This document shows positions 5,199 through 34,100 of a stretch of 51,869 nucleotides of DNA, piece after piece (the first letter of the stretch is position 1; each line of letters opens with the position of its first letter). The translations under genes and the position numbers were made by a program. The stretch comes from Reclinomonas americana ATCC 50394. Taxonomy: Eukaryota. The stretch is from NCBI GenBank assembly GCA_048213135.1, contig PS015160.1, forward strand, positions 134,250 through 186,118, written 5' to 3'. The notes under the pieces were generated by a model that worked only from the letters and a program-made list of their open reading frames with translations, ran no database searches and was not told the DNA's origin.

Positions 5199-6242
5199 AT
5201 TTTGGTTCCTCGCGGTGCACACCAGCGGCCTCCCACCAAGTACCGTCGTTGTTCCGGTGGCCGATCTCGATGAGGCCTCTGCGCAACGCGGGCAGTTCTT
5301 GTTTGCGCCCTCGGGTCATGACGACACGCAACGAGTTATCGTTGAGTATCCTCGGGGCTCCACCTCATGTCCGCGGCAGTGCTTCTTTTCCTTTTCCCCC
5401 TCTCACTCCCTTCCCCCCACTTCGCAGTCATACATGCGCCTCCTCGCCCCCAATTTACGCATCCGAGGCTTCCCCGATGCCTCCGCCATGGTGGCATTCG
5501 CGTCGAGCACCGCCGACACCATCTGGTGCGGTGTCGTGTTCGACCTGACCACCGAGCAGATCGACAGCGGTCAATTCTTCCCCGATAATGGTGGCACGGG
5601 TCCACCGGTGAGCAAGCTGTCGTACTCGTTGAGGTATCCGGGCAGCATCTTGGGCGCCAACGGCGAGGTACGGCGACTGTTTTTTCCCGCACGAGGAGAA
5701 ACACAACCGCCTCACAGCAATTCACTCGCAGATCATTCAAATGCCCAGCACATACGAGATGATTTACACACCGCCTCCGGGGACGTGGTCCAAAGCAGGC
5801 GTGTACCGCGAGTCTGGCCTGGTTTCCATCATCAGCACCATCGATCGTGCGGTGTCGTTGATTGCTCAAGGTGTGTGGTTCGACAGGAAGAATTGCTCTG
5901 CCATCCACCTTGCTGCTTCTTCTTTTGAGTGCTGCTACTTCTCCATGTTGTGCGTTGCACACTGACTGTGATTCGTGTCAAGCCCCTCCTCGCCTGTGAG
6001 TGTCACTTATCCTGTTCTTTGTTTGTGCTTTCTCTCTCCATCTCAACCAGAACACGTGATGTCGCCCATCTCTCGTCTTCTCTTTTTTCTCTGAGTTTGC
6101 CAATTGTCGACTTCATCTCTCTATATCTCTCCCTCTCAGTCTCTGTCTGTCTCATTCGCTGCAGTTGTCACTCACTTTTCGTTTCTTCTTCTCTCGCCCT
6201 CTCTTCCCTCTTCCGTTCGTGTCGTCTGTCTCTTGTATTTCC

Positions 6243-6282
<40 letters not shown>

Positions 6283-9015
6283 TCCATGTAGTGTCGTTTT
6301 ATTATTCCTTTCTCCCTCGTCCCCGTTGTCTCGTTGGAGTCGTTATCTTCATTTTCCCCTCTTTGTTTCTCTCTGCGTTTCTCTTTCCTCTCGCTTCTCT
6401 CGTCTCTCAGTTCTCTCTCTTTCCGCTCTTCCACAAGTGTCGCCCGTCTCTTGCTTTCCCTTCTCTCTCTGTTTCGTTCGTTGCAGTTGCTGCGTTCACT
6501 TTTCCCTTTCTTTCTCGCTCATCTCTCTCCGTTCGTCTTTTCCTCACCATTCCTTGCACATCGTCTCTTGCCCTCCCCTTCCCCTTTCCCCCACCCTTCC
6601 CCTCCCACCCTCCCTTCCCCTCCCGCCCTCCCTTTCCCTCTTTTCCCCTTCCCCTCTCTCATCCCTTTCCCCACTTGCAGGCCAACCACTCTCGCCCCAC
6701 GCCATCCCCTTCATCTACGAAACCACGCAACGCTTCCCGCTCGACCCGCACAGCTCCGGGCAGACTGCCGCCGAGAACCGCGCTCGTGAGGGCTTTGTGC
6801 GCTACGCCGTTGGCGTGTGGGTCATTGTGGGCTCACTCCTCGCCTACTACCGCCTGCTCACCGACGTGGTGGTGGAGAAGGAGACGCGCGTTCGTGAGAC
6901 AATGCGCATGATGGGACTGCATAGCTTCCTCTACTGGATCACGTGGTTCTTCACCACGCTGCTGATGAATACGGGGGCGGCCGTGCTCATTCCGGTCCTC
7001 TTGCAAGTGTCTGGAGTGTGGCCGGAGAGCGACGTGGCGCTTATCTTCCTCGTCATCCTCTTCTTCAACGCCGCCATGACCACGCTGTGCTTCCTGCTGA
7101 GTGTGTTTGTGGAGCGTCCGCGCTCGGGCGGCCCTGTCGGTCTCCTCGTCATTGTCGGTGTGAGCGTGCTGGGTGTCTTTGTCTCCGCCGACCCCAACAC
7201 GTTCCCCGAGCCCGTGGCCATTCTCCTTTCGCTGCTGCCGCCCGTGGCCCTCACCAATGCGTTTTCGACCATCAACGCCGGCGAGGTCAATTCCGCGCCC
7301 ATCAATTTTAGCAATGCTTCAAGTATGGGATCGGTGCGTTTAAGGGAGAGAGAGAGAGAGTATGTGTTCTCTTTTCCTTTCGTTTGTGCGTGTCTCTCTC
7401 TTTCGCCCATTCCTGTCCCCGCGAAACTCCTCACACTTTGCCGCTTACGCAGCCATCGGTGGCACTGATGATCGGCATGCTCATTCTCGACACCTTCATG
7501 TATGCCGTGTTTGCCTGGTACTTTGCCAATGTTATTCGTGGCGACATGGGCATCCCGCGTCCGTGGTACTTCCCGTTCCAAGAGTGCGCCAAGTTTTGTG
7601 CGGGCCGTGCCAACACCCGCAGTCGGAAGCGCTTCTCGGCAGGCAGTCTCATCAATAGCACTGAGGCCAGCGGCTCCGGCTCTGACATTTCATCGTCGTT
7701 GTATTCGGCGTCGACAATGCCGCCGTCCTTGCGTTGCGTTGGGCTGCCAGCTGTATCTCGCCCGGCATTTCTCGCTTCTCATTTCCTCGCACCCCCTCGC
7801 AGACCACGCTGACATTGAGGATCGCGAAGAGGTCGGCGGCGAGCCGGCGATTTCCATTCGTGGTCTGACCAAGGAGTTTCCGAATGGCACCGTCGCCGTC
7901 GACGATTTGTTCCTCGATGTGTATCCCGACGAAATCACTGTGCTGTTGGGTCATCCGGGCGCCGGCAAGGTTCACGCAGCGTGTTTCTCTCCATGCTGTT
8001 GTAACCACGATGCTCACGGTTGGTTGCAGACGACTGTCGTCAACATTCTCGCCGGCATGCTCACCATCACATCCGGAGACGCCGTTGTGGAGGGTGTTTC
8101 GCTGCAGAGACATCGCAAGTTGGTACGGCGCTACGTTGGCATCTGTCCGCAGGTTAGCGCGCTGTGGGAACAGCTCACCGTGCGCGAGCATCTGGTGGTA
8201 TTCGGTGGCGTCAAGGGCCTGTCGTACACGTCGGCCTTGAACGGTGAGCACATGCAGCACACTGGGGGGGGGGGGGGTGGTGGGGCGGGGTGTCGTCCCT
8301 GTTGCTCATTTCTGACTGCGCACAGAAACCGATCGACTGATTCACGAACTTGGTCTGTCACACAAACGCGACACGGTGGCCTCCAAGCTGACTCTCAGTC
8401 AGAAGCGCAAACTGAGTGTGGTACGCAAAGTGATACAGAGTGTCTGCACGCGTTTGTTGTGTCGCTTTTCTCTACTGTACATGTGCAGGGGGCGAGATTG
8501 TCGCTCTCTCCCCCTCTCTCCGTATTTGTAATTCTCTATTGTCCTCTGCCCTCCCCTCATTTCTCTCTGCGCTTCGATATCGACAGGGAGTGGCGCTGAT
8601 TGGCGACTCGCCGATTGTGATTCTGGATGAGCCCACCGCCGGACTTGGTGCGTCACGATGCCAATACTCTCACATCATGTTATTGCGCTTACTTGTTCAT
8701 GCATGTGCAGACCCGTTCACTCGTCGAGCCTTGTGGGATGTGCTAGAGAGAAACAAGCGCGGTCGTACGATTCTGCTCACCACTCAGCACATGGTAAGTC
8801 ACTCTCTTTTTCGGTGTCTCTCCTCTTTCTTTGTCTCTCTTCTTACTTGCTGTCTCTCCTCTTTCTCGCTGACTCTATTCTCACTTGCCGTCTCTCTTAT
8901 GTCTCAATTCTTACGTTCCATCTCTCCTGCTACTCGCCGTGTCTCCTCGTACTCGCCATCTCTCCTCTTACTTGCCGTTTCTTGTCTTGCTTGACGTCTC
9001 TCCTCGTACTCGCCG

Positions 9016-9072
<57 letters not shown>

Positions 9073-12000
9073 CTCACCGTCTCTCCTCTTTTTCGCCGAC
9101 TCTTGTCTTGCGTGCTCTCTCCTGTCTTACTCGCCTTTCTCACTGTCTCTCCTTTCACTCGCCGTCTCTCCCCGTTCTTGCTGTCTCAATTCTTACGTGC
9201 CATCTCTCCTGCTTCTCGCTGTCTACCCCCTCTCTCTCTCATTTTGTATGTTTCTCTTTCTCGCTGTGCTCCTCCTCTCACTTGCCATCTCTCCTTTTTC
9301 TCGGTGTCTCTCTCTCACTCTCTTTCTCTTTCTCTCTCTCACACACCTCACTTCAACCTGCCATCTTCCCTTCCCCTTTCTAATCTGTAGGACGAAGCCG
9401 ACATGATTGGAGACCACATCGCCATTCTGAGCCAGGGTCAGTTGCGGTGTGCAGGCTCTTCGCAGTTCCTCAAGGTTCGGGACATGCTAGCTTATCGATT
9501 GTGTTGGCGTGTTTCTTTTCCGCTCACTTTCCACTCGACAGACTCGATTTGGCATCGGCTACATGCTGAAGCTGGAATGTGCTCCCGACTGCAACCCGAA
9601 CACAGTCACCGAACTCATTCGGCGGCATGTACCTTCGACGGAACGTGTCTCCTATCCAGAAGAGCACGTGCTGGCGTACAGACTCGCGCGCTCACAGTTG
9701 CGGATCTGTTTTTCATCACATCTCCGGTGTCTGTGCTCTCACATGTCTCCTGATCTCTTCTTTCACAACAAGAGTGTGTTTGCATTTCTTTCCCTTCTGT
9801 TCGTTCTCCTGCTGCTTCACCTCTCACGTCAAGTTTCTTTCCCTCTCTTTGTGTCGGTCTTCTCCTTGTTGTTCATTCTTCTCCATACTGCTGGAATCAC
9901 GTGGAAGAGCTGGCCTTCCCTCGCTCTTCTTGGTTCCAGTCTCCTCCTCTGTGTACTCTCTGTTCTCTCCTCCCGTTTGCTTGTACAACCTGCCCTACTC
10001 TTCTCTTTGACTTTCCTTCTTCTGCTCCCTTCTCTCCCTTTGCTTGCACAACCAGCTCTTCCCTCCTCTTCTCTCTCATTTCCCTTCCCGCTCTCTCCTC
10101 ATGTGACTTCCTCTGCGATTCCCGTCACCTCGAGATTCAGTGTTGTCTATATCTCTTCGCTCATCTTCTCTTCCACCATCTCCCCGGCTGCTCTCCAGGG
10201 GGAATCCTTGCAGTTTTTTTGCTTGCGCATTGATTCCTCCGTGCCACCGCGCAGCGTCCGTTACTCCTTACTCGCTCCTCTCCCTTTGCCTGCCCAGCCT
10301 CTCGCTCATTTTTCTTCTCTTCCACCTTCTCTTTTCTTTGTTTCACTTCTCATTACCTTTCTTCTCCACACCAGCTGCGACGCCTTCAGTGCCATGTTCG
10401 AGGAGCTCGACCGCTCAATGCGCGACCTGCACGTCCTGGGCTACGGCATCTCGATGACCACCCTGGAGGAGGTGTTCCTGCGTCTCGTACAAGAGGGCGA
10501 TGAGTGGGAACAGTCCACAGTTTCGTTGTGTCCTTTCTTCCCAGTTACTTCACCTGACGCTCTTCCTCATGCTTATGCCCACAGGACCTCGGTCGCACTC
10601 TCGACGAGCGACGATTGATGCGCTCCCACAGCCTCACCGGCCACAGTGAGCACGGTGCCAGCGGAGACATTGAGTTGGGAGGCACCTACGGTTCCTTCTC
10701 CACTGGTGTGCGCCTTTGTTTCGTACGATCCACCTCTGCACTCTTTTCCTCACACGGTGGCGCAGAAATGAGCAACCAATCGTTCCTCCGAGTGGACTCG
10801 ACGCGACCACACTTCCTGCTCCAACTCGGCGGCCTAATGGTCAAACGCGGTCGCCTGGCGCTGCGCAACAAGCGATTCCTCTTCACCCAGCTGCTGCTGC
10901 CACTGCTCTTGTTCCTCCTCGGCGTCCTCTTGCTGGTTTGTTCCTTGTTGTTGGTCCGTTAACTGGAACAACCTATTCACGATTCTTCTTTCGGCCAATG
11001 TGCAGTACTTCCTCACCAGTCCACCGGCCCCCGCCCAGCCACCACTGCCACTCACCATCGCCTCGTACGGCCCGTATGCCAATCTCATTGTGCCGTACGC
11101 ACCGGCCACTGCAGCCGCGGAGAATATCCTCCAGTACTTGCCTGGCTTCTCGTTGCTGAAATCCACGCCGTCGTTTGCCTCGGACAGTGATCTCGAACAG
11201 TATCTGCTCCAGAGCGCCATTCTCAACGGCCTCTACCAGAACACCACATTTGGCGGGTACAGCTTCTCGTCGGCGGATCCGCAGGGCCAGATCGCCTTCA
11301 ACACGTGGTTCTCACCGGCGGCCGTCCACTCCATTCCCATCTGGGTGCACTCGATGAACGAGGCCATCTTGCGCTCCACGCCAGGACGGGCGCAGTACGC
11401 TGTCTTGGCCTCGCTGTGGCCGTTCCCGATTTTCGACTTTGCCAATCTGAACACGCACGTGTACGCCGGCATCTGCTTCATCTTGGCGTTCTCCATTGCG
11501 GCCAGCTCCACGGCGGTGCACGTTGTCAGCGAGCGTCGCTCCAAGGCCAAGCATTTGCAGCTGTTGGCGGGTGCCGGAAAAGTTGCGGAGGAGAGGGTGG
11601 TCATATGTTTCTTCTTCTTCGATTTTTCTATTGGAATAGTTGTGAATGGTGTTGTCTCCTGCACTCTTCCCTCGTGTTATTTTGTTCGATCTCTCCGCCG
11701 TTTCAGTTTCCCTTACTTTTTTTCCCTCTCATTCTCGCTGACTTTGCTTTCTTCTTTCCTTCTACTCTTTCATTTCGCCCTTCATTTGGCTTTCTTTTCC
11801 CTTCTTTGCTTTCTCTTTCCTCTTTGGTGTCCTTTCCCCCTAACCCTTTCCTTCCTTTTATGCAGTTCGTATACTGGCTCGCCAACCTCCTCTGGGACGT
11901 CCTGTGGCAACTGCTCTTCGTCTCCTGCGCTGTGGTCCTGCTTCTCGCGATGCGTCCAAACGAATACGCAAACGCCGGTGCCTACCTCGGAGCCGGCAAC

Positions 12001-12943
12001 TCACCCGCGGCCCTGGTTCTGCTCTTTCTTGGCCACGCATTCGCGTCCACTGCGCTCACCTACCTGCTGTCGCTCGGATTCCGCGGGCAGACGGCTGCGC
12101 AAGGATCGCTGGCTGCCATCTTCTTCTTCTTCGCCTTGTGTCTACTGTCCACCATTACCTCTGTGGGCGCCACACAAGGCCCGAGCAATCACTCACTGAC
12201 GTTCCTTCTCGAGTGGATCTTTGCCAGCCTCTCCAGCACGTACGCCATGACAGTGGTTCGTGAGCATTCCACGCGCGCACAGGCTGTTTTGTCGCTTGCT
12301 CCTCATCTGCAAACACTTCGCAGGGCATTCTCAAGTTCGAGGGCTTCCTGTATCTGCGCCCCGATCCTCCACACGTTACACCGTGGACATTTGATCAAGG
12401 CGTCCTCAACGAGATCGTTCTGCTGTGGGGTCAAGCGGTGCTCTATTTCGCCGTGCTGATGGTGGTCGAGATGCGACAGGAGCTCTTCCGGTGTATGATG
12501 CTGCGGTGTCGATGGTGCTGCTGTTGTTGCTGGCCTCGCGGAAGCCGCCTGTCGCGCAGCCGGCGTGTGCTGGTTGCCAATGGCACCATCTCCGCACAGC
12601 CGCTGCTGCCCGGAGCCTCGGCCGCTGCCGGTGCTACCGCGCCGCCTGAAGGTGCAAAGCCGCCAGTTGTTTGAATGTGCTGACGTGCGCTGCTGATTTC
12701 AGTGTCTGCTTGTTCTGCGCAGAAGGCGAGCCAGAGCTGGACGAAGACGTGCTGAATGAGGAGGCACGAGTGGCGCAAATTCTGCAAGTCAACCACGGCA
12801 CACCACCAGACGACAACGCAGTGCTGCTGCAGCAGGTCCGCAAGGAGTACAATGCCGGCACGCCACTGGCAAAGGTTTGTGTGCGCTTCCTTTGTCAACT
12901 CTCTTTGTCTGCACGTCTGCTGCGATTAGATCTCCCCAGTACC

Positions 12944-13038
<95 letters not shown>

Positions 13039-15477
13039 CGTGTGTGCGCGTGCGTCGAAACCATGATGATGCAGCACTGAGAACGCGTTGTTCTTTTCCT
13101 TCTTCCTCATCTCGTCGTCTTTGTTCTCTGATCTCTTCTGCATCCCTTGCTTCTCGTCTCACTCTCCCTCCTTCTCCCCTCCTTTCCCTCGTCCAGGTCG
13201 CCGTCAATCGCCTCTCCTTTGCCCTGGAACCTGGAGACTGCTTCGGCATTCTGGGTCGCGGCGGCTGCGGCAAGACGTCTGTCGCGCTAATGCTCACCGC
13301 GCAGCTGCGAGCCACATTCGGTGATGTGTTTGTGGAGGGTCTGGATGCGGTGATCGAACCCCGCGAGTTGCAACGCAACGTCGGCTACTGTGCACAGCGC
13401 GACGCACTGATCGAGGATCTGACCGGGCGCGAACACCTCCTGCTGTTCGCGCGCCTCAAGGGCATTCCCACCAACAAAATAGGCATGGTGGTAGACGGCC
13501 TCATCAACATGATGCGACTCGGCAAGCTGGCCAACCGACGTGTGGCGCGCTACGGCAACGGCATTCGGAGGCGACTATCGCTGGCGATTGCACTAATGGG
13601 CAACCCCTCGGTGTTGGTCCTCGACGAGGTCACGCGCGGCGTCGACCCATCAACAAGAAGGTCTCCGACGTTGCTGACTCACTCACGTGGTGATGATGAT
13701 GCCGCTGCTCACGCGGTCCTGTTGGGCAGATTCATCTGGAACACCATCATTCGAGTTCGCGAGGAGAAGACGATTGTTCTCACAACACACAGCATGGAGG
13801 AGGCGGATGCGCTGTGCACGAGAATTGGAGTGCTGAAGGGAGGAGAGGTGCGTTGTTTTGCAGTGATTGAAGAAGAAGAGAGGACGAAGGAGAGGAGGAG
13901 ATGTACAGGAAGAGGAAAAATAGAAGGTGGGGGACGAAGCGCAACAACAAGAAGAACAAAAATAAGTTGAAGAAGGAAGAGGAGGAGAAGCACACACACG
14001 GGCCACTGGCCTCGAAGAAGGAAGAGAGCAGCAGAACAGAGAAGATCTTCAGGGAAAGAGGCGTTGAAGACGCGGAAGAGGAAGAAGAAGCAGAAGAGGG
14101 AGAAGAGAAACAACATCAACTACAATAAGAAGATGAAGGAGAAGGAAACAGAAGCAGAAACGAGCAGCAGAACCTACAAGGGACACTGGGTGTGAAGAAA
14201 AGGGAGCAGAGAAGTAGAGAAGAACGAGTAAGCATGCATATGTAGACAGAAAGAGGAACTGATCGCGGTCGCGGCACTCCGAAGCTGAGAGCTTGGAAAC
14301 AGGAAAAATGTTTCGCTCTCTCATCTCTGTGCTCCTCAACTCGGTCGTCTCTCGCCCCGCCGATATCTATTCTTCTTGTTCTTCACCGCACTCTCGCAGT
14401 CGTTCTTACAAGTGTCCCTGCATCTCTTGTTTTTCTCCTTATCTCATATCGATATCTTGGCTCACTCTCAGTCGTGCTGAAGGTTGTCTCCTGCATGAAC
14501 TTTTCGTTTTCTCTCCACCTGTAATTGATTTCTTGACTCCCTTTGTTGTTCCTCACCACACTCTCACAGTCATGTTCTGTGTTTCTCCGCCGATCATCGG
14601 TATCTTGATCACGATTGTCTCTGCATATACTTCTTTTAATCTCCGCGTATCTGTGATATCTTGACTCCTTTGTTGTTCCTCACCACACTCTCCCAGTCGT
14701 GTTCTTGTGTTTCTCCGCCGATCATCGGTATCCTGATCACCTTCTCACGATTGTCTCTGCATTTACTTCTTATTCTCTCCGCGTGTCGTGATATCTTGAC
14801 TCACCTTGTTACTCTTCACCACTCTCTCGCAGTCTAATATATTCACTTGTTTCTCTCTCCCTTCCCCCTCCCTCTCCTCTTCCCTCTCCCCCTTTCCCCT
14901 TCCAGATGGTGTGCCTCGGCACCTCGCAGCACCTGCGCGACCGCTTCAGCACCGGCTATCACATGGAGATCAAGACCATCACCCCCGAGTACTCGCCGGC
15001 ACTGCACGCGTTCATGGACCGTCAGTTCCCCGACGCGCAGCTGTTGGATGAGCACGGATGCCTGCACACGTTCCAACTGCCTTATGCCGCACACTCGCTC
15101 GCCTCTGTGTTTGGCCTGTTGCAGCGCAATTCGCAGGCTCTCGGTATCGACGACTATGCGGTGACGCAGCCGACGCTGGAGCAAATCTTCATTCTCAAGA
15201 CTCAGGAGCGCGTGGATCGTGATCCTGCCACAATTGGTGCGTTGTCTCTACTCCTCTTTCACTCTTGGTGGTCACCTCATCCATCTGTCACTTGTTTGCA
15301 GACCGCGTCGAGTTGCGACCACGGCGCTCCTGCCTGCTCTGCTGCGGCTGCCGGTGCTGTTGTGGCGCCTCGCCGGCCTCATCGGTCGACTCGGTCCGCG
15401 AAGTCACCGGCACGGTCACCTACACGGACGGGTACGACGAGTATGCAGAATCAGAGACCGAGTACGGTCGATCCTAA
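5199..15477 (+). CDS. ABC transporter subfamily A, full-size (TMD-NBD-TMD-NBD), about 23 visible exons, 5' end missing
   Basis: [29 protein letters not shown]1 GHPGAGK|TT and [46 protein letters not shown]2 [59 protein letters not shown]. Stop TAA at 15475-15477. Confidence 0.95.
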
Positions 15478-15587
15478 AAAATCGTAATATATAAATTAAC
15501 AACAACCAGCTCATTTGTCTTTGTGTGTTCTTACAGCTTTATGGGGGTTTCTCCCCTTTTCCCTTATCTCTTTAACATTATACGCGG

Positions 15588-21339: not shown

Positions 21340-21699
21340 GAGTGGAGAGAGGGTGTTTTGTGTGCGCACGCGCGACTCCCGCTGCAAGATACAGTGCCAA
21401 CGGCAGGTGTCACTGACATCCATCAATACTGTTCGGTCTTTCGCAGTCCTGAGAATCGTGCGCCACCCAGCGTGTTGGCGGTGGAACGGGCACTGCTGCA
21501 ACGACACGACGCAGCCTTTCGCGAGGAAGAAAAAGTCAACGAGAGAAAAAACGCAATTGCCATCGCGTTTCATTTTCGAATTGCCACTCTCTTTCCAGCG
21601 GCGGTTCTCTTACAGCAGCAGAAAGAGGAGCCGTTGCCACCATCTGCACATGGTGGCAGTGTTAGTGTACGTAATGCGAGGAAAGAATTCTCCATTTCG

Positions 21700-23076
21700 T
21701 TAACGAAACGATTGCTTGACAGGTCCGGTCGAGAGCGGACGTCCGTCGCCCAAGTACCGCGCCATGACGAGTGCCGGATGGAAACGGAAGCGGATAAAGT
21801 AGTAGAACTGAGGTGTAGGGTGAGACGGGACCAGCAGCGATAGTATGTGTGGGTGGGGGAGTGCGCAACTCGATGCTCGTCCATCACGGAGAAACCTAAT
21901 CTCTCGTAAAACCGGACGGCGGCCTCGTTTCGCTTCTCGGTGTGCAAGTAAATCACTTTGGCGGCGTACTGATGCGTGCAGTCGGCAATGGCGTTCTCCA
22001 TAAGCTTGGAGGCTGTTCGGTTTATGAGAATAGTGCGCGAAGATCTCTCTTCTCATGCGACACCAGGGCCACTTGCTGCATCCTAACATCCATGTATCTT
22101 CTTCTCCATCACTTCTCACCAGCAGCAAATGCCTTCTTCGTCTCTCTGTACGGGACTAAGTGACTCGTGCAACCTCACTTCGACTACCTTTCCATCCATC
22201 ACCAACGCTTTTCTCGCAATGCCTCTCGCCTCTGTCGGCAAAGGGCCACTCGCTGCATCCTCACTTCCTTCCTTTCCCTTTTCTCACAATCCCTCTCGCC
22301 TCACTCGTGAGGCAGCTTTTTCACTCATTCTACCGCTGCGCCTCACATGCACGTGCGACGCACTGCGAAACAACCGCGATGCAGCTCCCCTCTCTCTTTC
22401 GGCTTCTCTCTTTCTCTTCCCTCTCAATCCCTCTCGACTCGCCCGCGATGCCATTTCTTCTCTCTACATCGTGCTCTACGATGGCGCCTCCCCTCATCTC
22501 TCTTGCCTATTCTTCCTCTTCTCCCTGTACCCTCTCGACTCACCCGCGATGCCGTTTCTTCTCTTTCTTGCCATTTCTCTCTCACACTCTGACCGCGACT
22601 TTCTCATCATCTCTTCTCCCTCGTCTCCGCCCTTTCGCCACGCAACATATGCCATGTCGACGGAACGGCTGATCCACGCCCAGCATCATGACATAGGCCA
22701 CCGCACTAGGTCCACACTCCGGCGCCAACAATATACTCTCCTTCTCATCCCCACACGAAAAACAATCAGTCGCCCTCGCCCTGACACTCCTCCTACTCAC
22801 CCCGCACTCACCGCACGCATCACCCGCTCAGGCGGCCGCACTCTCGTCAACACAAACCCCACAACGCTCTCCGCAGATGCGTCATACGGCTTCTGCTGCG
22901 CAATCCACATGACAAGATCCGGTTCCGAGCGAAAGATGGACCGGAAAACACCAGGAGGATACCTGCAGAGACAGACAGACACTCAACAACGGACTTGACA
23001 GCTGTGTCTCTGTGCCTCTCTCTCTCACTCACTCACTCACTCACTCACTCACTCACTCACTCACTCACTCACTCAC

Positions 23077-23130
<54 letters not shown>

Positions 23131-24103
23131 TCACTCTCTCTCTCTCTACTCCTCCTCCTCCTCTACCTCCTCCTCCTCTCTCTCTCTCTCCTACCTCCTC
23201 CTCCTNNNNNNNNNNNNNNNNNNNNNNNNNNNNNNNNNNNNNNNNNNNNNNNNNNNNNNNNNNNNNNNNNNNNNNNNNNNNNNNNNNNNNNNNNNNNNNN
23301 NNNNNNNNNNNNNNNNNNNNNNNNNNNNNNNNNNNNNNNNNNNNNNNNNNNNNNNNNNNNNNNNNNNNNNNNNNNNNNNNNNNNNNNNNNNNNNNNNNNN
23401 NNNNNNNNNNNNNNNNNNNNNNNNNNNNNNNNNNNNNNNNNNNNNNNNNNNNNNNNNNNNNNNNNNNNNNNNNNNNNNNNNNNNNNNNNNNNNNNNNNNN
23501 NNNNNNNNNNNNNNNNNNNNNNNNNNNNNNNNNNNNNNNNNNNNNNNNNNNNNNNNNNNNNNNNNNNNNNNNNNNNNNNNNNNNNNNNNNNNNNNNNNNN
23601 NNNNNNNNNNNNNNNNNNNNNNNNNNNNNNNNNNNNNNNNNNNNNNNNNNNNNNNNNNNNNNNNNNNNNNNNNNNNNNNNNNNNNNNNNNNNNNNNNNNN
23701 NNNNNNNNNNNNNNNNNNNNNNNNNNNNNNNNNNNNNNNNNNNNNNNNNNNNNNNNNNNNNNNNNNNNNNNNNNNNNNNNNNNNNNNNNNNNNNNNNNNN
23801 NNNNNNNNNNNNNNNNNNNNNNNNNNNNNNNNNNNNNNNNNNNNNNNNNNNNNNNNNNNNNNNNNNNNNNNNNNNNNNNNNNNNNNNNNNNNNNNNNNNN
23901 NNNNNNNNNNNNNNNNNNNNNNNNNNNNNNNNNNNNNNNNNNNNNNNNNNNNNNNNNNNNNNNNNNNNNNNNNNNNNNNNNNNNNNNNNNNNNNNNNNNN
24001 NNNNNNNNCTACTACCTACCTACCTACCTACCTACCTACCTACCTACCGTACCTACCTACCTACCGTACCTACCTACCTACCTACCTACCTACTCACTAC
24101 TAC

Positions 24104-24151
<48 letters not shown>

Positions 24152-24471
24152 TCACTCACTCACTCACACACTCACTCACTCTCCCTCCCCCTCCCTCCCT
24201 CCCTCCCTCACTCACTCACTCACTCTTCCCTCTCTCCCTCCCCCCTCCCTCTTCCCCTTCCCACCCTCCCTCCCGCCCTCCCTCTCTCTCACCCCACAGG
24301 AAAGAGTCGCCGACTAAGTGAGGCCAAGGCCGGCACCACTTGCTGCCTTTCATGCATGTCCTGCAGTCGCGTGTATCGTATTCCATCGCCTGCAGCCACC
24401 GACGTTGCAGTGTGCAAGCAACGTCGCGAGAGAAGCAGCAGGCCGCAAGAGGAAACTCGTCGAAGGAGCAT
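21700..24471 (-). CDS. GNAT acetyltransferase, Naa60/Naa50-like, with an Arg/Leu/Ser-rich N-terminal extension
   Basis: Spliced: LFPVG|YPPGVFRSIF...VVGFVLTRV; VAYVMMLGVDQPFRRHGIS|SKLM...VIYLHTEKRNEAAVRFYERLGF...|FYYFIRFRFHPALVMARYLGDG...*. The motif order matches Naa60. Confidence 0.8.
23015..24290. repeat. (TCAC)n, (TC)n, (CCT)n and (TACC)n microsatellites around an N gap in GNAT intron 1
   Basis: Directly visible. Confidence 0.9.
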
Positions 24472-24542: not shown

Positions 24543-27500
24543 ATGGACGCGGCAACAGGAGGCGGTGCGTGTGTGCACACCTCTCTCTCCCTCACTCACC
24601 CTTTCATTCACACTCACTCTCTCTTGTGTGTTTATTTTCTTTCGATATCGTTGACAGTTGCGCGCGCCTCTCCCTCCCCGCCTGTATCGCCTCCGTCGCC
24701 GACTTTGGACGTGTCTGTGCGACAATGGCGACTGCGACCGCTCTCGCCACACACACCTGCCTCGTCGCCTCCTGCTGGCCATGGAGTGCCGAACAATCAT
24801 CAGCACTCGTCTGGTGAGGAAGACGACGACGAGGATGAGTCATCCTCCTCGTCGCCGGGCATCCGCGAGGAGTACCGCGGAGCGCGTGCTGGTAAGGACG
24901 TGCTTACGCCTCCACGACCGGTGTCGTCGTCCAAGTCGAATCAGCGACTGGCGCGGCGACTGGCGGCGCTCATGCCGCGACCACTGCGTCCGCCGAGCTC
25001 TCCAGCCGCCTATCAGAACAAGAGAGGAGGCGGGTCGCCTGTGCCGGCGGTGGAGGCCGATGCAGTGTCGCTGGGCGTGGGTAGCGATGCCAGCCTGGCG
25101 CCTGTCGTGGCTCCGTTTCCGGGCATTCGACCGGCGACGGTCTTGCACTGGGATTTGGGAGAAGAGAATGGCGAGGAGGGCGAAGGAGCGGCAGTGGAGG
25201 ATGTCGTAATGCGGTCGCCGCCGCGTGCTGCTGGGGTGGCGGTGGGTGCGGCGAAGCACTCGGAGAGTGAGGTGTTGTGGCGTCGTGTGTTGGCTGCTTT
25301 CGGAGTGCGGCAGCGGCACAAGCAAGACACGGCGGCGGCGGTGCTTGTGGTGGTGCATTTGGCCATTATGTGGGCGCTGTTCATTATTGCTGTGTACCTG
25401 CTGGCACGCCCCACAGTCGCCTATCAGACGCTGCAGGTCACCGGTGAGTTTGGTTGACGGAATCGGTTTTCTTGTGAGGAATGCTGATCGGCGTGCGTTG
25501 CAGGTTCGGCGGCGTTGCCACAGACCACCATCATAGAGACGGTATCGATCACGTCAACACAAGCGGGACGTGCCGCCGAGGTTGTTATTGCCTCGCCGAC
25601 GCAAGCATCGCTGGGGTTCGATGGAGGTGGCGTGGCGCGTGGCACGGGGTTTCGGGTCGGCGCCGACAACGCCACCACGCTCTCCATCTCCCTTGCCACT
25701 GCTCCGCTGCTGCAACTGAAGCCGCGCACATCACTCAACGTCTTGTCGCTTCCACCAGTGTCGCGGAGGTTTGTTGCGAGCCCGCTTACGCGCGCGCTTG
25801 ATGCGTGAGCATCCACACTTAAATATCGCCTTTCCGCAGACTGCTGCAGCAAGACACCTCCGAATCATCGTTCCACATCCTTACAAACTCTGTACTCCTC
25901 GGTAACTCCACCTCGAGTGACGTGTACATGACGCGCCTGGAGTCCACGACTGGAACTGCCGGACGACTCATCTTGGCTGGACAGTCGGTGCCGGTGAGTC
26001 AGTGGTCGACCACGTGCGCAACCCCGTGCAACTGCTCACCTGCCCGCGTCGTGTACACAGAGCACCACCGCCGCGACTGGAGGCCGCATACTGCTGGTTG
26101 CGGGTGCCGGCAATCCTGGCGGCGACGTCGCCATTCAAGGAGGCTCAGGTGTGCAGCCGGGCCTATGTGTGGTGGGCTGTTGTCGAGGCTGATTGTGACA
26201 AAAATAATGTTGTCGAGCAGCGCAAACGTCTTCCACGGGCGGCAACGTATTCATCGCGGCCGGCAACGCAGGAGAGGCTCCCAACTCATCGGGCCTCGTG
26301 CAAGTGCACGGCACCAAGTTGCAGATCCGACCGCCGGGCAGGACCAACGAGAGCGGTGGCAACGGCGAAATTCAGATCGGCACACGTGCAGACCTCGGTG
26401 ATGTTGCGTGATTGGAGGGCAGTTCTCGGTCAGCGCCGCCTCTCACAGCTCTGACATCCTGCCATGCACTGCAGTGGATTACCTTGCGAGCGGATCCGCT
26501 TGCGTTCACGCTTCTTGACACGCTGTCGCGCACTATTGTTCGCTTTCCCGTCACTGGTCCATTCGACTTTGACCGTGAACTGTCGGTGAGGACGCGGCTC
26601 GGAGTCACCTCATCGGCGCCCGGCGGAGCCGCTCTCGTGTACGCCACTTCAAGCGGTGGCGGTTGCGTCTATTCTTTCCATACATCGTGAGGTGGGCCAC
26701 GCTGGTGCTTATCAATCCGTGGCACACAGATGGACTCGCACGCATGGTGCTGTCGGTCGACTCCAACAGTGTGGAGCTGGTTCGTGAGCCTTTGTGAGAG
26801 GTTGCTTGATCACGCATTCTCTTATTGCTTGTTGTGCTGTTTCCTGCGCAGCGGGTTAGCCAGAGCGCGACAACGGACACCGTCCTGTCCACCTCCAGCT
26901 CTAATCTTCGTGTCGTACCGAAGACTGGCTTCTCGACCGTGGTCGACAGCCCACTTTTCGTCACTCAGTCTGCGTCGGTGACCGGTCTTGTGACTGGCGG
27001 CAGCTTCACTACAGCCGGCACGGCGTCGGTCGCTGGTCTAATTACTGGAGGCAGCGTGACGACGACCGGCAGTGTGCAGAGTGGTACAGTTAGCTCGTCT
27101 GGCTTGATCAGCGGCGGCAGCATCACGACGGTTGGCTCCGTGCAGTCAGGCACTGTCAGCTCGTCTGGCTTNNNNNNNNNNNNNNNNNNNNNNNNNNNNN
27201 NNNNNNNNNNNNNNNNNNNNNNNNNNNNNNNNNNNNNNNNNNNNNNNNNNNNNNNNNNNNNNNNNNNNNNNNNNNNNNNNNNNNNNNNNNNNNNNNNNNN
27301 NNNNNNNNNNNNNNNNNNNNNNNNNNNNNNNNNNNNNNNNNNNNNNNNNNNNNNNNNNNNNNNNNNNNNNNNNNNNNNNNNNNNNNNNNNNNNNNNNNNN
27401 NNGTTGGCAGCATGCAATCCGGTACTGTTAGCTCTTCCGGGTTGATCAGCGGCGGCAGTGTGACGACTGTTGGCAGTGTCCAGTCTGGCACTGTTAGTTC

Positions 27501-30500
27501 AGCAGGATTGATCAGTGGTGGCAGTGTGACGACGGTTGGCTCCGTGCAGTCTGGGACTGTATCTTCCAGCGGCCTGATCAGTGGCGGCAGCGTCACGACA
27601 GCCGGCTCGATCGAGAGTCTGACGTTGAGCTCAAGTGGCTTGATCAGCGGTGGAAGTGTAACTACGGTCGGCAGCGTGCAATCTGGCACTGTTAGTTCGA
27701 GTGGCTTGATCAGCGGCGGCAGCGTGACGACGGTTGGAAGTCTGCAGTCGGGCACTGTCAGCTCGTCTGGTTTGATCAGCGGCGGCAGCGTGACGACGGT
27801 TGGAAGTCTGCAGTCGGGCACTGTCAGCTCGTCTGGTTTGATCAGTGGCGGCAGCGTCACGACAGCCGGTTCGATCGAGAGTCTGACGTTGAGCTCAAGT
27901 GGCTTGATCAGCGGTGGAAGTGTAACTACGGTCGGCAGCATGCAATCTGGCACTGTTAGTTCGAGTGGCCTGATCAGCGGCGGCAGCGTGACGACGGTTG
28001 GAAGTCTGCAGTCGGGCACTGTCAGCTCATCCGGGTTGATCAGCGGCGGCAGCGTCACGACAGCCGGTTCGATCGAGAGTCTGACTTTGAGCTCATTTGG
28101 CTTGATCAGCGGCGGTAGTGTGACGACGGTTGGCAGCATACAGTCTGGCACCGTGAGCTCCTCTGGCTTGATCAGTGGCGGCAGTGTAACTACTGTTGGT
28201 AGTCTTCAGTCGGGCACTGTTAGTTCGAGTGGCCTGATCAGCGGCGGCAGTGTGACGACGGTTGGTAGCATGCAGTCCGGCACTGTGAGCTCAAGTGGTT
28301 TGATCAGTGGTGGAAGTGTGACGACAGCCGGTTCGATCGAGAGCCTGACGTTGAGCTCGAGTGGCTTGATCAGCGGCGGCAGTGTGACGACGGTCGGCAG
28401 CATGCAGTCGGGCACGGTCAGCTCGTCTGGTTTGATCAGCGGCGGAAGTGTGACGACGGTCGGCAGTCTTCAGTCTGGCACTGTATCTTCCAGCGGCCTG
28501 ATCAGTGGCGGCAGCGTCACGACAGCCGGCTCGATCGAGAGTCTGACGTTGAGCTCAAGTGGCCTGATCAGCGGCGGAAGTGTAACTACTGTTGGTAGTC
28601 TTCAGTCGGGCACTGTTAGTTCCAGTGGCTTGATCAGCGGCGGCAGTGTGACAACGGTCGGCAGTCTTCAGTCGGGCACGGTGTCCTCCAGCGGCCTAAT
28701 CAGCGGCGGCAGCGTCACCACGGCCGGCTCGATCGAGAGTCTGACGTTGAGCTCAAGTGGCTTGATCAGCGGCGGCAGCGTGACGACGGTTGGAAGTCTT
28801 CAGTCGGGCACGGTGTCTTCCAGTGGCCTGATCAGCGGCGGCAGTGTGACCACGGTCGGCAGTATGCAATCTGGCACTGTCAGCTCGTCTGGCTTGATCA
28901 GCGGTGGTAGTGTGACGACAGCGGGCTCGATCGAGAGTCTGACATTGAGCTCTTCTGGCTTGATCAGCGGCGGCAGCGTGACGACGGTCGGCAGTCTTCA
29001 GTCGGGCACGGTGTCCTCCAGCGGCCTGATCAGCGGCGGAAGTGTCACGACAGCAGGTTCGATCGAGAGTCTGACGTTGAGCTCTAGTGGCTTGATCAGC
29101 GGCGGCAGTGTGACGACGGTCGGCAGCATGCAGTCTGGTACCGTCAGCACCTCTGGCTTGATCAGCGGCGGCAGTGTAACTACTGTTGGTAGTCTGCAGT
29201 CGGGCACGGTGTCCTCCAGCGGCCTAATCAGCGGCGGCAGCGTCACCACGGCCGGCTCGATCGAGAGTCTGACGTTGAGCTCATCTGGCTTGATCAGCGG
29301 CGGCAGTGTGACAACGGTCGGCAGTCTTCAGTCGGGCACGGTGTCTTCCAGTGGCTTGATCAGTGGTGGAAGTGTGACCACTGCTGGTTCGATCGAGAGT
29401 CTTACTTTGAGCTCATCTGGCTTGATCAGCGGCGGCAGCGTGACGACGGTCGGCAGCATGCAGTCTGGCACTGTCAGTTCGTCTGGTTTGATTAGTGGCG
29501 GCAGTGTGACGACGGTCGGCAGTCTTCAGTCGGGCACCATCAGTTCATCTGGTCTGATCAGTGGCGGTAGTATCACGACAGCCGGCTCGATTGAGATGGT
29601 TTCTGTGAGCACCAGTGGCCTCATTAGTGGCGGCAGTGTGACAACGGTTGGCAGCATGCAATCTGGCACTGTTAGTTCATCTGGGTTGATCAGCGGTGGC
29701 AGTGTGACGACAGCCGGTTCGATCGAGAGTCTGACGTTGAGCTCGAGTGGCTTGATCAGTGGCGGCAGCGTGACGACGGTCGGCAGCATGCAATCTGGAA
29801 CTGTCAGTTCGTCTGGTTTGATCAGTGGCGGCAGTGTGACGACGGTCGGCAGTCTTCAGTCTGGCACTGTTAGTTCCAGTGGCCTCATCAGCGGCGGCAG
29901 TGTGACGACGGTCGGCAGCTTGCAGTCGGGCACCATCAGTTCATCCGGTTTGATCAGCGGCGGCAGTATCACGACAGCCGGCTCGATTGAGATGGTTTCT
30001 GTGAGCACCAGTGGCCTCATTAGCGGTGGTAGCATCACAACAGCCGGTGCAATTGAGAGTCTGACAGTGAGTTCCAGCGGCCTCATCAGTGGCGGCAGCA
30101 TCACGACGGCGGGCTCGATTGAGAGTCTCACATTGAGCTCGAGTGGCTTGATCAGCGGCGGCAGTGTGACGACGGTCGGCAGCCTGCAGTCTGGCACTGT
30201 CAGCTCAAGTGGTCTGGTCAGTGGTGGTAGCCTGTCGTCGGCGGGCACCATTGTGTCGTCGAACTTGGTAGGTGCACAGCGTCTGCAACTGGCCTCGGAT
30301 GACACTGACCGCACGATGGAGATTTCGTCGGGATTCGCGCTGCTGCAGTACGTCGAAGGCAGCATGGCGGCAAATGACAGGGTTTGTTCTCTTTTGCTGT
30401 TTCTTCTGCGTTGGAGAAAGAAAGCTGACGATGTGTTGTGTGTGTGTGTTTGGCGACACACAGCTGTATCTCCTCTCCGGGCACGGCGCGTACTCGGAGA

Positions 30501-31126
30501 TCACGCTCAACATGGTTTCGTGACCTCGTCCACCCACCGACAACCTACGGCGCCAATCTTTTCTCACCCCTTGGAGTGTGCGTGTACAATGCAGTCTCCA
30601 AGTTCCATGCCGTCGGATGCCGCTCTGAAAACCAATGTGAAACGCATCGAGGGAGCCCTCGAATCGACGCTGCGTCTGACCGGGCGCACATTCACCTGGA
30701 ATGAGGTCCGCCATAGTTGTCGTTCCATCCGCATCCCGCAGCTCTCTCACGTTGGCTTGCAGGCCGCGGCATCACTGGGCTTCGTGCCCGGCACCGAATC
30801 CCTCGGTTTCGTCGCACAGGAAATCGAAGAGCACTTGCCTCTCCTCGTGGAGAGCCGTAGTCGTCCCAATGGACTGGTGAGAACATGAGACAAGCATATC
30901 GCATACGCTCTTGGCGTGACACTCACAACTCCTCCTTGCGCAGACTGTGAAGCAGGTCGCCTACGCCCAACTGGTAGCTGTGCTGGTGGAGGCCATCAAA
31001 GAGCAGCAAGTGATCATTGATGACTTGCGCAGCCGCCTGCAGGAGCGCGAGCGCGCAGAAGCGTCGATCCTCGATCGACTGACCACAATAGAGCAAGCGC
31101 TACGTGCGCTCCGCGAACCGCTCTGA
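24543..31126 (+). CDS. Type II membrane-anchored repeat fibre protein with a C-terminal intramolecular chaperone/autoprocessing (Peptidase_S74) domain; 13 exons, about 1,900 aa
   Basis: ATG 24543 (MDAATGG|VARASP...). Pro/Ser-rich N-terminus; hydrophobic helix AAAVLVVVHLAIMWALFIIAVYLLA; RR|LL motif; GG-x-I-x-L-x-A-G repeats; 22-aa repeat stalk. Then SDAALKTNVKRIEGALE...FTW...LGFVAQEIEEHLPLLV...VAYAQLVAVLVEAIKEQQ and a coiled coil to TGA at 31124-31126. Confidence 0.85.
26965..30260 (+). repeat. Coding 66-bp tandem array (about 50 units of 22 aa)
   Basis: Unit QSGTVSSSGLISGGSVTTVGS[LMV], with variants AGSIESLTLSSS and AGSIEMVSVSTS. Interrupted by an N gap at 27172-27402. Confidence 0.95.
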
Positions 31127-31170: not shown

Positions 31171-34100
31171 CTAATTTTTATAAAAGCTGTTGTAGTTTAG
31201 TTTCATCAACATGTGCGCCACTGCGCAATCCTCCAGTCAGCCACTGAAAACGATGCAACGAAAACCCACTCAGTCAATAGTGCAACGACGCAACAGTGTG
31301 TGTTCCCAGATTTCCGATGCACCGTAGTCAGCACCGACAGCAGCATGTGATGACCGTGTCGGAAGGCCTTGGAGATGCGCTGATGCTCCAACTCGAGCAG
31401 GTCGAGACCGGAGCTCGTCCCATTCTCTGCGTACCGTACGATCACTGAGAATGAGACCATTGACTTTCATGCAACGCAGCACACAAAGTCCTCACCGGCA
31501 AGCTCGCGAAACTGCAGTTCCCGCTGCCGCACCTCGACAGCGAGATCCAGTATCATGACAATGGTCGTCATGAGGCGAGAGGCCTGCGTGTGGACAACGG
31601 CGGTCAGAGATGCGCGTGGACAAACGACGGCTTGTGCGGTGCAACTCACCTTTTCTTGCAGGAGGCAGCGATGCCCGATTCGCTTCACATACTCGTCGTG
31701 CGCCTGCCGAATCTCATGGAGATTGAGAGTGGAGGCCGTGCTGAGGCGTTCCTGCAGCTCCAGCCACGACGTCTCCAGCACACGTGACATTACGTAGTCG
31801 TGCAGCGTGACGACAAAATGCAGCATCTCTGACCGCAGCAGCTGGAATTTGTGCACAAGCACGTGTCTCGTGGTAAGCGGATGACACGTGCTACCCTCCA
31901 GCACGTACTGCCAGATCATCGAGTGTGAGCGTGGCGAATTGCACAAACACGCAAATACACAAGAGGTGTCACGGACCTTGGCCAGCTTCAGCTGCAACAG
32001 GAAGGTGAACACGGTGCGATAAATCGACAGCGTGTCGTCGCGAATGACCAAATTGAGAGGCCACCCGACCTACACGAGAAGGAGTGAGCATCGTGTGCGA
32101 AGAGTAGAATCTGCTCTGTAAACAATCACCTGAAACTCGATGTGGTACCGCCGCAGCTTCTTCATCACCGTGTCTGGAATGCCGCCAGCTACCGATGGCG
32201 CGGCAACTTCGCGCGCGTCTCCGTCGGGGACGAGTGGAAGAACTCCAAAATGGATACGCTCCACCATTTCACGTGTGGTCGGACAGCCGCGCAACACCTC
32301 ACGCAACGACGAGTCTCCCTCCAGTGCGTCCACCCAATCGGGATCGGCCATGAGCTGCAGTCATGCACGCAAGCACTCGTGAGTGACGGCGCTCGTACAC
32401 TGCACACACTGGGAAAAAACATCCAACGCAACTCGCTCAAAGACCACTTGGCAGAATTCGTGCATGACGTCGCCTTGGCCCATGAAGAACACAGCCTTCA
32501 GCTCTCGCAGGCGCTGCAGGAGGCCGCATTTCTCAAACAGCAGGCGATTCAGGTAGGGTGCCACTGTCTGGCACTGGTGCCGAATGTGCGACAGCAGCGT
32601 ATCACGCAGCAGCACACTGAACGGGATGCGGCTGACCACGGTGGCGTCTGTTGGAAGAAAAGAAAAATCGGTGGGATGATGTCGATAAAAATGCTTCAGC
32701 AAACAACCTCACTCGCACCATCCGCAGAGAGTGCGACGCGTCGCCGAGGTGCCAGTATTGCATCCAGAGCCGGAAGTGCGAACACGGGGGCCGAATCGAG
32801 AAAGTCGGAATCCACAGAGATGGCATCCATGGCCTCTGCATGCACAGAAGTGAGTCACATTGCCGCAGCGCATGTGCGTGTGTGCGCCATTTGCTCGCCG
32901 CACCAGCCGTGAAAAACGTTCTAGACTCGTCCTCCGACTCTGCCGCCAGTGCTGACGGCCGCCAATCGTGATCACCAAAGAGATCGTCGGCCGCCGAGAG
33001 GACATGCCGTCTGCACAACGCTCAGCCATCAGGGGCCCACCAACAGTAATTCTGAATCCATTGACAAACCGTGCTGTTGGAGTCTTGCCAGTCTGCTGCA
33101 GTGGTCCGCGACCGCGCTCTGCGACGCGAACAGAGTGGTCAAACAACGCTGACTTTCACATCAAGGAAGGCGAACAACAGCGGTACGAAACTGACAGCCG
33201 TAAAGAATGTGGGTGCGCGCGCAGACACTCGGTGGCCGCACGTCACCGCAATCGAATCGGCAAACAGCGCGTGCAGTGGCTCACGCCGCAGCAACGTAGA
33301 AATGCTGCCGGACGACAGCAACTTGCTCTCCTGAGAAACGAGTCGCCGCCTCTGTCGTGAGTGTCCGTGTAGGCAGCGGGGCGATAGTGAGAATGGTTTC
33401 GTACCTTCTCAATGTACATGATGAGATTGATGGACTTGCCAGCCAGCAGAATATCTTGCACCAGTTCCCGCAGAAACGACGGCACTAACAGCTCTTCTGC
33501 TGGCACAGAAATCGACAAGTATTTGTTAAGCACATCACCACGCACCACGTTAGTTATAACCTCACCGTTTCGACGACGACTGTCATCGCTGGGGACCGTG
33601 CGTAGACGGAAAGCTGACACGAATCCCTCGTACGACTCCACACGCACGCCAGGTGTCCTGTGTGCTCGTGAATGACGTGTCTTACAGAGGTGGTCTCCCA
33701 GTCGGCATCACACACCGTGCAATCATGAACTCGTCAAAGGCGTCGTTGAGAATGCCCTCATACAGCCACGAATCCAGCATGTCGAGAAGCGGATTCACGG
33801 CATCACAAAAGAGCTCAACGACCAGACCATAAGCATCCGGTGTCAGATTCAGCTGCGTCTGACACACGTAATTGTACCTGATCCACGAAACGCATGAGCA
33901 GTGAGGGAGACGAGGTGCGTAGGCTCCTCAGCAAGCGACCGTCAAGCACGCAACAGCAACGACAGAATGCGGGAGGCACTCGCTGCACGCGACTGGTCCG
34001 GCTCCAGAGGTCTCACAAACGCGAGGACATCGTGCACCAAGTCGAGTGGTCGAACCGCCGCGCGAACCTCGTTCTCCACAGCCAGCACTGTGACTCGACG

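Follow-up and report, generated by a model that had tools for sequence, protein, structure and literature searches.

An intron-rich gene of Reclinomonas americana with a predicted membrane anchor, a long repeat array and a C-terminal Peptidase_S74 domain

How does a gene that ends like a phage tail fiber come to lie, split by introns, on a eukaryotic chromosome, and is its product used by the cell or is it the remnant of a virus? S74 fibers are already known from phages, giant viruses, endogenous polinton-like viruses and Bdellovibrio, and the S74 domain is also found in MYRF. The question is raised by a stretch of nuclear DNA from Reclinomonas americana ATCC 50394 (contig PS015160.1, positions 134,250–186,118 of the forward strand; 51.9 kb, hereafter called the window and numbered from its first letter), which has a GC content of ~53–63% outside seven N runs. 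Positions 24543–31126 (+ strand) can be read as a gene with 13 exons and 12 introns. This model was rebuilt from the DNA without the exon list of an earlier, sequence-only reading of the same stretch, and it arrived at the same number of exons. From the N- to the C-terminus, the predicted product of more than 1,829 residues (counted as sequenced codons, with an assembly gap within exon 9) comprises ~232 residues, one hydrophobic helix, ~340 residues without a family match, at least 46 22-residue repeats and a complete Peptidase_S74 domain. The model was handled as two parts of 684 and 1,145 residues, split at the exon 9 gap. On balance, we favor the reading that this is a cellular, spliced gene which descends from a viral or phage receptor-binding fiber and has been retained for the cell's own use, its product being an anchored, self-cleaving trimeric fiber.

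The analysis supports the assignment of the C-terminus as a complete S74 intramolecular-chaperone domain with a Ser/Lys pair. The domain is encoded by three exons, in which the following features were placed:

30595..30705, + strand: exon 11, opening third of the S74 domain with the cleavage motif
30613..30615, + strand: predicted catalytic/cleavage-site Ser codon, preceded by a Pro codon and aligned to the Ser of SDxxxK in homologs and in solved S74 domains
30628..30630, + strand: predicted catalytic Lys codon, five residues past the Ser, in the SDxxxK motif
30763..30876, + strand: exon 12, middle of the S74 domain
30944..31126, + strand: exon 13, end of the S74 domain with the long C-terminal helix; TGA stop at 31124–31126

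A HMMER comparison with Pfam family PF13884 (Peptidase_S74), which the sequence-only reading had suggested, gave a match of 37.3 bits (cut-off 22, E value 3.5e-9) in the unspliced DNA, covering profile positions 1–57 of 58, and the sequence strings quoted in that reading are present. In tail-fiber and baseplate families of PHROG, exons 11–12 and then exon 13 matched consecutive profile positions at the extreme C-terminus (909–963 and 967–999 of 1000 in phrog_8215; 1466–1521 and 1529–1560 of 1567 in a second example), and the tail-fiber match took in the last ~90 profile positions. The two introns that had been proposed to lie inside the domain were evaluated with a local hidden Markov model built from eight intronless S74 domains. 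With this model the spliced product scored 86.4 bits as one domain, compared with 75.9 bits for an alternative acceptor, 73.7 bits in two pieces when the 57-nt intron 11 was retained, and 47.0 bits for genomic read-through, in agreement with the proposal. The translations of the three S74 exons tile four intronless homologs end to end with no overlap and no missing columns (alignment A1), and the spliced C-terminus aligns with P0030, one of the proteins found in the homology searches, without gaps across both intron positions. Removal of the introns thus restores colinearity with homologs, so the S74 introns have the appearance of real ones. When a profile made of the three S74 exons and their homologs was compared with the PDB, it matched 6f45 (long tail fiber distal subunit) with an E value of 8e-18, and also 8jov (tail fiber), 7dc3 (MYRF ICA, E value 1e-9) and 3gud (GA-1 neck appendage). 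The unspliced S74 piece, searched directly against the PDB, gave chance-level matches only.

The Ser and Lys residues of the SDxxxK motif align with the motif in the four homologs and with the solved domains. The same spacing of five residues is found in endoNF (S911/K916) and MyRF (S587/K592) (PMC8326128), SDxxxK is the cleavage motif of the S74 fibers of Bdellovibrio (PMC10769870), and a Pro precedes the catalytic Ser in MRFs (PMC3828593). Exon 13 was predicted to form a single helix (residues 2–57, 56 residues) with a predicted local distance difference test (pLDDT) score of 95.9. In MyRF, trimer formation is driven by a triple coiled coil made up of the terminal helix (PMC8326128). The predicted exon 13 helix would fit such a coiled coil; of the C-terminal coiled coil claimed earlier, the helix was recovered, and the coiled coil is compatible with it. 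The S74 domain follows the predicted all-beta repeats after a linker of ~70 residues, and nothing lies past it.

The region ahead of the linker is occupied by a repeat array, which is encoded by the largest exon:

26852..30381, + strand: exon 9, repeat exon, without a start codon at its 5' end
26984..30276, + strand: G/S/T/V repeat array with a 22-residue unit, except for a first unit of 17 residues
27172..27402, no strand: assembly gap of 231 N within exon 9; the reading frame differs between its two sides

Three units precede the gap, the first of which has 17 residues, and 43 units follow it, with a spacing of exactly 22 residues in 42 of 42 cases. The repeat region, ~1,010 residues of which are sequenced in addition to the unsequenced portion in the gap, contains 31% Ser and 13% Thr. 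The period of 22 residues given in the sequence-only reading is therefore retained, and its length of ~1,100 residues is replaced by these figures, with one unit of 17 residues. There are 13 distinct repeat peptides, and 30 of the 43 units fall in three types. The mean identity between units is 72% at the DNA level vs 83% at the protein level, and differing codon pairs are synonymous in 8,390 and non-synonymous in 3,359 instances (counted over 903 unit pairs, which are not independent events). Thirteen units with an identical peptide are encoded by 13 different DNA versions, and some of the Ser columns mix AGY and TCN codons. The synonymous share is 0.71 in the coding frame, which has 0 stops, and 0.01–0.51 in the other five frames, which have 9–98 stops. 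Because divergence is biased toward synonymous changes only in this frame, the array must be old, with translation in this frame and selection acting on the peptide to preserve it. These results show that the repeat peptide is under purifying selection at the protein level.

The last 327 residues of exon 9, modeled as a single chain, folded as a solenoid that is all-beta and repeats every 22 residues (pLDDT 75.6, predicted template modeling score 0.75); a single-chain model of this kind cannot distinguish a native intertwined trimer. Prediction of a three-copy complex of 29599–30381 (repeats and linker, without the S74 domain; controls not run) gave a score of 0.00 relative to a mark of 0.32, which speaks neither for nor against a trimer. 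In the ESM Atlas, the repeat piece reached a score of at most 0.90 with low recognition, which we treat as a lead only.

The remaining exons encode the region from the N-terminus to the repeats and the start of the linker:

24543..24564, + strand: exon 1, from the first ATG following an in-frame stop (putative start codon); seven codons and 1 nt
24658..25443, + strand: exon 2, low-complexity N-terminal region rich in P/S/A/R/E and the only hydrophobic helix; no Pfam family above cut-off
25332..25406, + strand: predicted transmembrane helix, model residues 233–257, hydropathy maximum 2.83
25504..25768, + strand: exon 3, putative membrane-proximal ectodomain; no Pfam or PHROG family
25840..25993, + strand: exon 4, donor GTGAGT, acceptor CAG
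26061..26148, + strand: exon 5, G-rich motif
26221..26402, + strand: exon 6, G-rich motifs
26475..26661, + strand: exon 7
26730..26779, + strand: exon 8, 50-nt mini-exon with flanking introns of 68 and 72 nt; the least certain exon
30464..30514, + strand: exon 10, 51-nt mini-exon in the linker ahead of the S74 domain

With a 19-residue Kyte–Doolittle mean above 1.6 as the criterion, the model contains a sole hydrophobic segment (residues 230–262), and its core coincides exactly with 25332–25406, where a transmembrane helix had been placed before. Five Lys/Arg residues are present in the 20 residues preceding the helix vs one in the following 20, and by the positive-inside count this suggests that the N-terminus would be cytosolic and the protein of type II orientation. 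The earlier claim of a lumenal or extracellular C-terminus agrees with this predicted topology. Judging by composition, the N-terminal region is probably disordered. For the stretch that joins anchor and repeats, phmmer found no match among the 156 proteins collected, and there was no convincing cluster in the ESM Atlas (for exon 3, a score of at most 0.90 with low recognition, again a lead only).

The exon chain is a predicted model, built from sequence logic and homology. All 12 introns are of the GT..CAG type and 57–93 nt long; the 93-nt intron after exon 1 ends with a pyrimidine-rich tract and CAG. If read through, eight of the 12 introduce an in-frame stop and two more shift the frame, so that only 24565–24657 (93 nt) and 30706–30762 (57 nt) could stay in frame. 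In the exon 10 stretch, the spliced C-terminus aligns with P0030 and with another protein, P0154, with gaps. An origin of the introns from introners was rejected, as no two of them resemble each other. There is no Cys codon among the 1,829 codons of the model, and several intron read-throughs do encode Cys. Large extracellular proteins of eukaryotes rarely lack Cys altogether, and its absence here provides a useful internal check on exon boundaries. Directly upstream of exon 1, positions 23206–24294 comprise a gap of 803 N and, after it, CTAC and CTCT microsatellites (24012–24294), so the promoter region and any additional 5' exon lie in unsequenced DNA.

These exons could in principle belong to two genes, a small membrane protein (exons 1–2, perhaps to 8) and a separate secreted or cytosolic S74 fiber, that were wrongly chained in the model. 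Exons 8 and 10 are indeed tiny, exon 6 could also be spliced in frame in another way (donor 26397 with acceptor 26448), and no homolog spans the region from the anchor to the repeats. However, exon 9 opens at an acceptor with no ATG ahead of the repeats, and lacking a start codon of its own it must be spliced onto upstream exons. The junctions from exon 2 to exon 9 all keep the frame, with introns of 60–72 nt that end in CAG. In addition, P0030 carries an anchor, repeats and an S74 domain in one uninterrupted open reading frame (ORF). This protein of 677 residues shows the same order of parts: its N-terminus is basic and of low complexity, and a hydrophobic helix, short repeats, a linker and S74 follow. 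Over its final 185 residues it aligns with the spliced model with an E value of 1e-20; it differs from our model in being much shorter, in its repeat sequence and in an overall identity of 29%. We therefore consider two genes unlikely; the missing start codon of exon 9 and the architecture of P0030 lead us to infer that the anchor and fiber exons form one predicted protein.

A single gene could also encode a fiber that does not stay attached. In that case the helix would serve as a signal anchor only, and the ectodomain would be cut, e.g. near an RRLL motif, and secreted to a wall, matrix or vacuole. The motif, which had been listed in the sequence-only reading, is present at model residues 356–359, ~100 residues past the helix, and it is formed only by splicing, across the exon 3/4 junction (25764–25845). 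Basic motifs of the R-x-L type act as cleavage or export signals in apicomplexans, where they direct the cleavage of type II secretory proteins, and the high Ser and Thr content of the repeats is as in secreted matrix proteins. On the other hand, a protease of this kind cannot be assumed in the present case, and one four-residue motif that exists only after splicing is weak evidence. Release of the fiber appears improbable to us, and retention by the anchor is the reading that we carry forward.

To place the gene among its relatives, 27403–30885 was compared by HMMER with 1.84 billion representative proteins. It matched 359 proteins with E values ≤0.001, of which 67 reached 1e-10 and 5 reached 1e-30; in all of them the match lay in the repeat part, with identities that never exceeded 45%. 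The top match was P0001 (E value 2e-59, 31% identity over 580 residues). The best matches, P0001, P0003 and P0047, are long metagenomic proteins (1,432–1,964 residues) with weak matches to Phage_T7_tail, and P0047 has an S74 end. Their repeats have the register G-x-[IV]-[ST]-G-G...T-T-x-G and a mixture of 17- and 22-residue periods, in common with the array in the window. For P0030, four relatives besides itself and one viral locus were found. P0154 (502 residues) contains an S74 domain (69.6 bits) and a prokaryotic N-terminal methylation (type IV pilin-like) motif that scored 19.4 bits relative to a cut-off of 21.2; from its sequence it looks like a pilin-anchored, S74-capped fiber of a bacterium. 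The search for protist and viral homologs that had been proposed earlier thus led to phage-like metagenomic proteins and to no close relative: in phage records there were 86 matches, all below 60% identity (best 34%), in IMG/VR seven loci with 33–34% identity and no close viral relative, and in the JGI metagenomes two loci with 29–38% identity. A word-index search with the S74 piece for longer proteins gave none with an E value ≤0.01 among 266 candidates.

The surroundings of the gene were surveyed with 20 flanking ORFs, chosen by length over ~52 kb. Family matches were obtained for seven of the 20, all of them cellular (two below the Pfam cut-off), and no viral family, and with it no capsid or packaging context, was matched among the 20. 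The neighbors include:

~5500..15500, + strand: multi-exon ABC transporter gene, upstream; ABC_tran E value 2.8e-21
21573..22052, − strand: GNAT acetyltransferase exon
31470..32069, − strand: gamma-tubulin complex protein exon, immediately downstream; GCP_C_terminal E value 2.6e-26, with a weak GCP_N match

Further cellular neighbors are a TraB-family exon, a weak SHMT piece and an EF-hand protein. In the ABC transporter gene, the intron at 13661–13729 is 69 nt long and of the GT..CAG type, and its removal joins two parts of the conserved ATPase region, which indicates that the host itself has short introns of this type. This gene also has long, CT-rich, microsatellite-laden introns; they account for a strong negative GC and AT skew at 4–12 kb. 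For the gamma-tubulin complex gene, an automated search for short introns returned only options of 396–441 nt, probably because an exon was skipped. Its conserved exon had no word-sharing relative with an E value ≤1e-5 (640 candidates; 5.8 billion protein clusters), and the lineage therefore seems to be poorly sampled in public protein sets. A 724-codon open frame at 16198–18369 (− strand) has no Pfam match and much low complexity, and since overlapping frames are open too, it is perhaps no gene at all. No RNA genes were detected in the window by Rfam and tRNA scans.

This setting bears on whether the gene still belongs to a virus. It might be the fiber gene of an endogenous virus (a polinton-like virus, a virophage or a giant-virus insertion), either still within its element or decaying, and without host function. 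Its repeats resemble those of phage-like metagenomic proteins, and S74 fiber proteins are described as ubiquitous in integrated polinton-like viruses (PMC12220804). However, the 12 introns match the intron of the neighboring ABC transporter gene in size and boundary type, the flanking ORFs match cellular and not viral families, and in GC content (0.53–0.60) the gene resembles its flanks. With more than 1,829 codons the frame is intact, repeat divergence is mostly synonymous, and the best viral relatives are as distant as given above. Cellular neighbors, host-type introns, an intact frame and purifying selection together argue against a passive viral remnant as well as against contamination, and we give an endogenous viral gene little credence compared with a gene of the cell.

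Comparison with known systems shows which parts of the predicted protein are familiar. With phage tail fibers and tailspikes, such as the K1F endosialidase and the T5 L-shaped fiber, it shares the C-terminal S74 domain, SDxxxK, the terminal helix and long beta-rich repeats. In contrast to them, the gene is part of a eukaryotic chromosome, 12 spliceosomal-type introns interrupt it, its identity to any phage S74 domain is at most 34%, and a membrane helix with a long low-complexity tail takes the place of the virion-attachment domain; no virion- or baseplate-attachment domain (Phage_T7_tail or similar) was matched by Pfam or PHROG in the scanned exons of exons 2–9. Fibers of polinton-like and giant viruses in protist genomes, as described in PMC12220804, are likewise encoded in protist nuclear DNA and combine large modular repeats with a single C-terminal S74 domain. 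Their genes sit in viral elements of 14–40 kb with capsid genes, and their repeats are of laminin-G, collagen and phage-tail types (PMC12220804), whereas here a different 22-residue unit is found in an intron-rich gene with cellular neighbors. The MAT fibers of Bdellovibrio are S74-capped, trimeric and beta-helical, stand on the bacterium's own cell surface and are matured by SDxxxK self-cleavage (PMC10769870). They resemble our case, by the S74 domain and by description, in that the bearer of the S74-matured fiber is a cell and not a virus; they differ in being bacterial, in the conserved N-terminal domain of 130 residues that comes after a signal peptide, and in lacking introns (PMC10769870).

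The closest comparison on the eukaryotic side is MYRF/MrfA, also a cellular protein with one membrane helix, an S74 domain (ICA), Ser–Lys at +5 and a Pro before the Ser. To our knowledge, MYRF is the sole studied S74 protein of eukaryotic cells, and its S74 domain releases a transcription factor in the cytosol. It could be asked whether the gene in the window encodes another membrane-bound transcription factor freed by S74 cleavage, especially as the S74-exon profile matches the MYRF ICA structure. In MYRF, however, a DNA-binding trimer is released by a cytosolic S74 domain that precedes the helix in the chain, whereas here the domain is at the extreme C-terminus and predicted to be non-cytosolic, and the fiber would be the retained product. 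As the sequence-only reading had noted, this order is the reverse of that in MYRF: the only hydrophobic helix is N-terminal to S74, more than 1,000 residues of fiber repeats lie between the two, and the model has no transmembrane helix C-terminal to S74. An Ndt80-type DNA-binding domain was not found by Pfam in exons 2, 3, 4 and 9, and of exons 5–8 the PHROG scan covered exons 6 and 7. A factor of the MYRF type is thus very improbable. Equally hard to credit is phage or bacterial contamination or an assembly artifact, for which the seven N runs in the window, one of them within the gene, might be cited, since the S74 domain itself is split by GT..CAG introns whose removal restores colinearity with homologs and the contig runs on into cellular genes on both sides, as already argued from the flanking genes in the sequence-only reading.

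Several observations weigh against a retained cellular fiber and limit the favor that we give it. An orthologue of the gene was not found in the protein, phage, viral and metagenome searches. Among the 150 matches listed, a motif screen flagged S74 in four, and Pfam confirmed three (P0030, P0134 and P0047); one top-ranking match, P0005, has a MAM domain and a G/S/V repeat of an unrelated kind, and the repeat-based matches may be partly compositional. For the ~340 residues between the anchor and the repeats (exons 3–8), no family was matched by Pfam, applied to exons 3 and 4, or by PHROG. Exons 1, 8 and 10 are the least secure, the link of the anchor exons to exon 9 on one transcript is a prediction of the model, and the proposed topology is based on one hydropathy peak and a charge count. 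Because of the 231-N gap and the frame difference across it, the repeat number and the full protein length are lower bounds. Finally, the beta-solenoid model of the repeats had no match with an E value ≤0.001, either among PDB structures (best TMq 0.46, 3p4g) or in BFVD (E value of the best match 5.9e-3, TMq 0.56, a podovirus DUF7666 protein), and a single-chain solenoid without a significant fold match means that the fiber could be monomeric.

Taken as a whole, the observation made in the sequence-only reading was confirmed, and its interpretation was partly supported, with trimer formation, autocleavage and surface location of the fiber, and the roles suggested there (hair, adhesin or extrusome fiber), being predicted properties. 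On the reading of a retained cellular fiber, its maturation can be pictured in four steps. The single N-terminal helix would insert into the membrane of the endoplasmic reticulum, leaving ~232 residues in the cytosol and the rest on the lumenal or extracellular side, in the type II orientation suggested by the charge bias. Three S74 domains would then associate by their long terminal helices and template the upstream repeats into a trimeric beta-structured fiber, as homology implies. A self-cut at Pro|Ser of the SDxxxK motif would free a 129-residue chaperone fragment and expose the fiber tip. The result would be a stable, very long fiber with three membrane anchors, for which a length of ~100 nm is estimated by scaling from the Bdellovibrio fiber Bd3182, modeled at about 550 Å (PMC10769870), and which would most likely stand on the cell surface and serve in adhesion or recognition.

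Modular, S74-capped fiber proteins of up to 3.9k residues are described as ubiquitous (PMC12220804) among the polinton-like viruses that have integrated into the genomes of most protist groups, and this lowers the surprise of meeting such a gene in a protist. Polinton-like viruses integrated in protist genomes are the most likely source of the gene. Tentatively, and with less assurance than for the retained cellular fiber as such, we propose the fuller scenario in which a eukaryotic cell took over a viral receptor-binding fiber, added an anchor and introns, and now matures it within its secretory pathway, where a lumenal S74 domain would form the trimer and then cut itself off, into a ~100-nm fiber on its own surface. 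Under this scenario the fiber could serve as an adhesin, as a prey-recognition hair or, in the manner of domesticated retroviral envelope genes, as a decoy occupying the receptor of its parent virus.

What would be new is the combination of a eukaryotic cellular gene, many introns including those within the S74 domain, an N-terminal anchor and an orientation opposite to that of MYRF. A literature search of full texts (with few subscription journals and no supplements) returned no report of a cellular, intron-bearing, membrane-anchored S74 fiber of a eukaryote, and P0030 suggests a small unrecognized family rather than a single case. If the proposed reading is true, eukaryotic cells would have a second, opposite use of the S74 domain, in which an N-terminal anchor keeps hold of the whole fiber and maturation takes place on the non-cytosolic side. 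It would also mean that virus-derived attachment fibers can turn into ordinary surface structures of eukaryotes, as in Bdellovibrio, and it would bear on how genes of integrated viruses gain introns and host functions.

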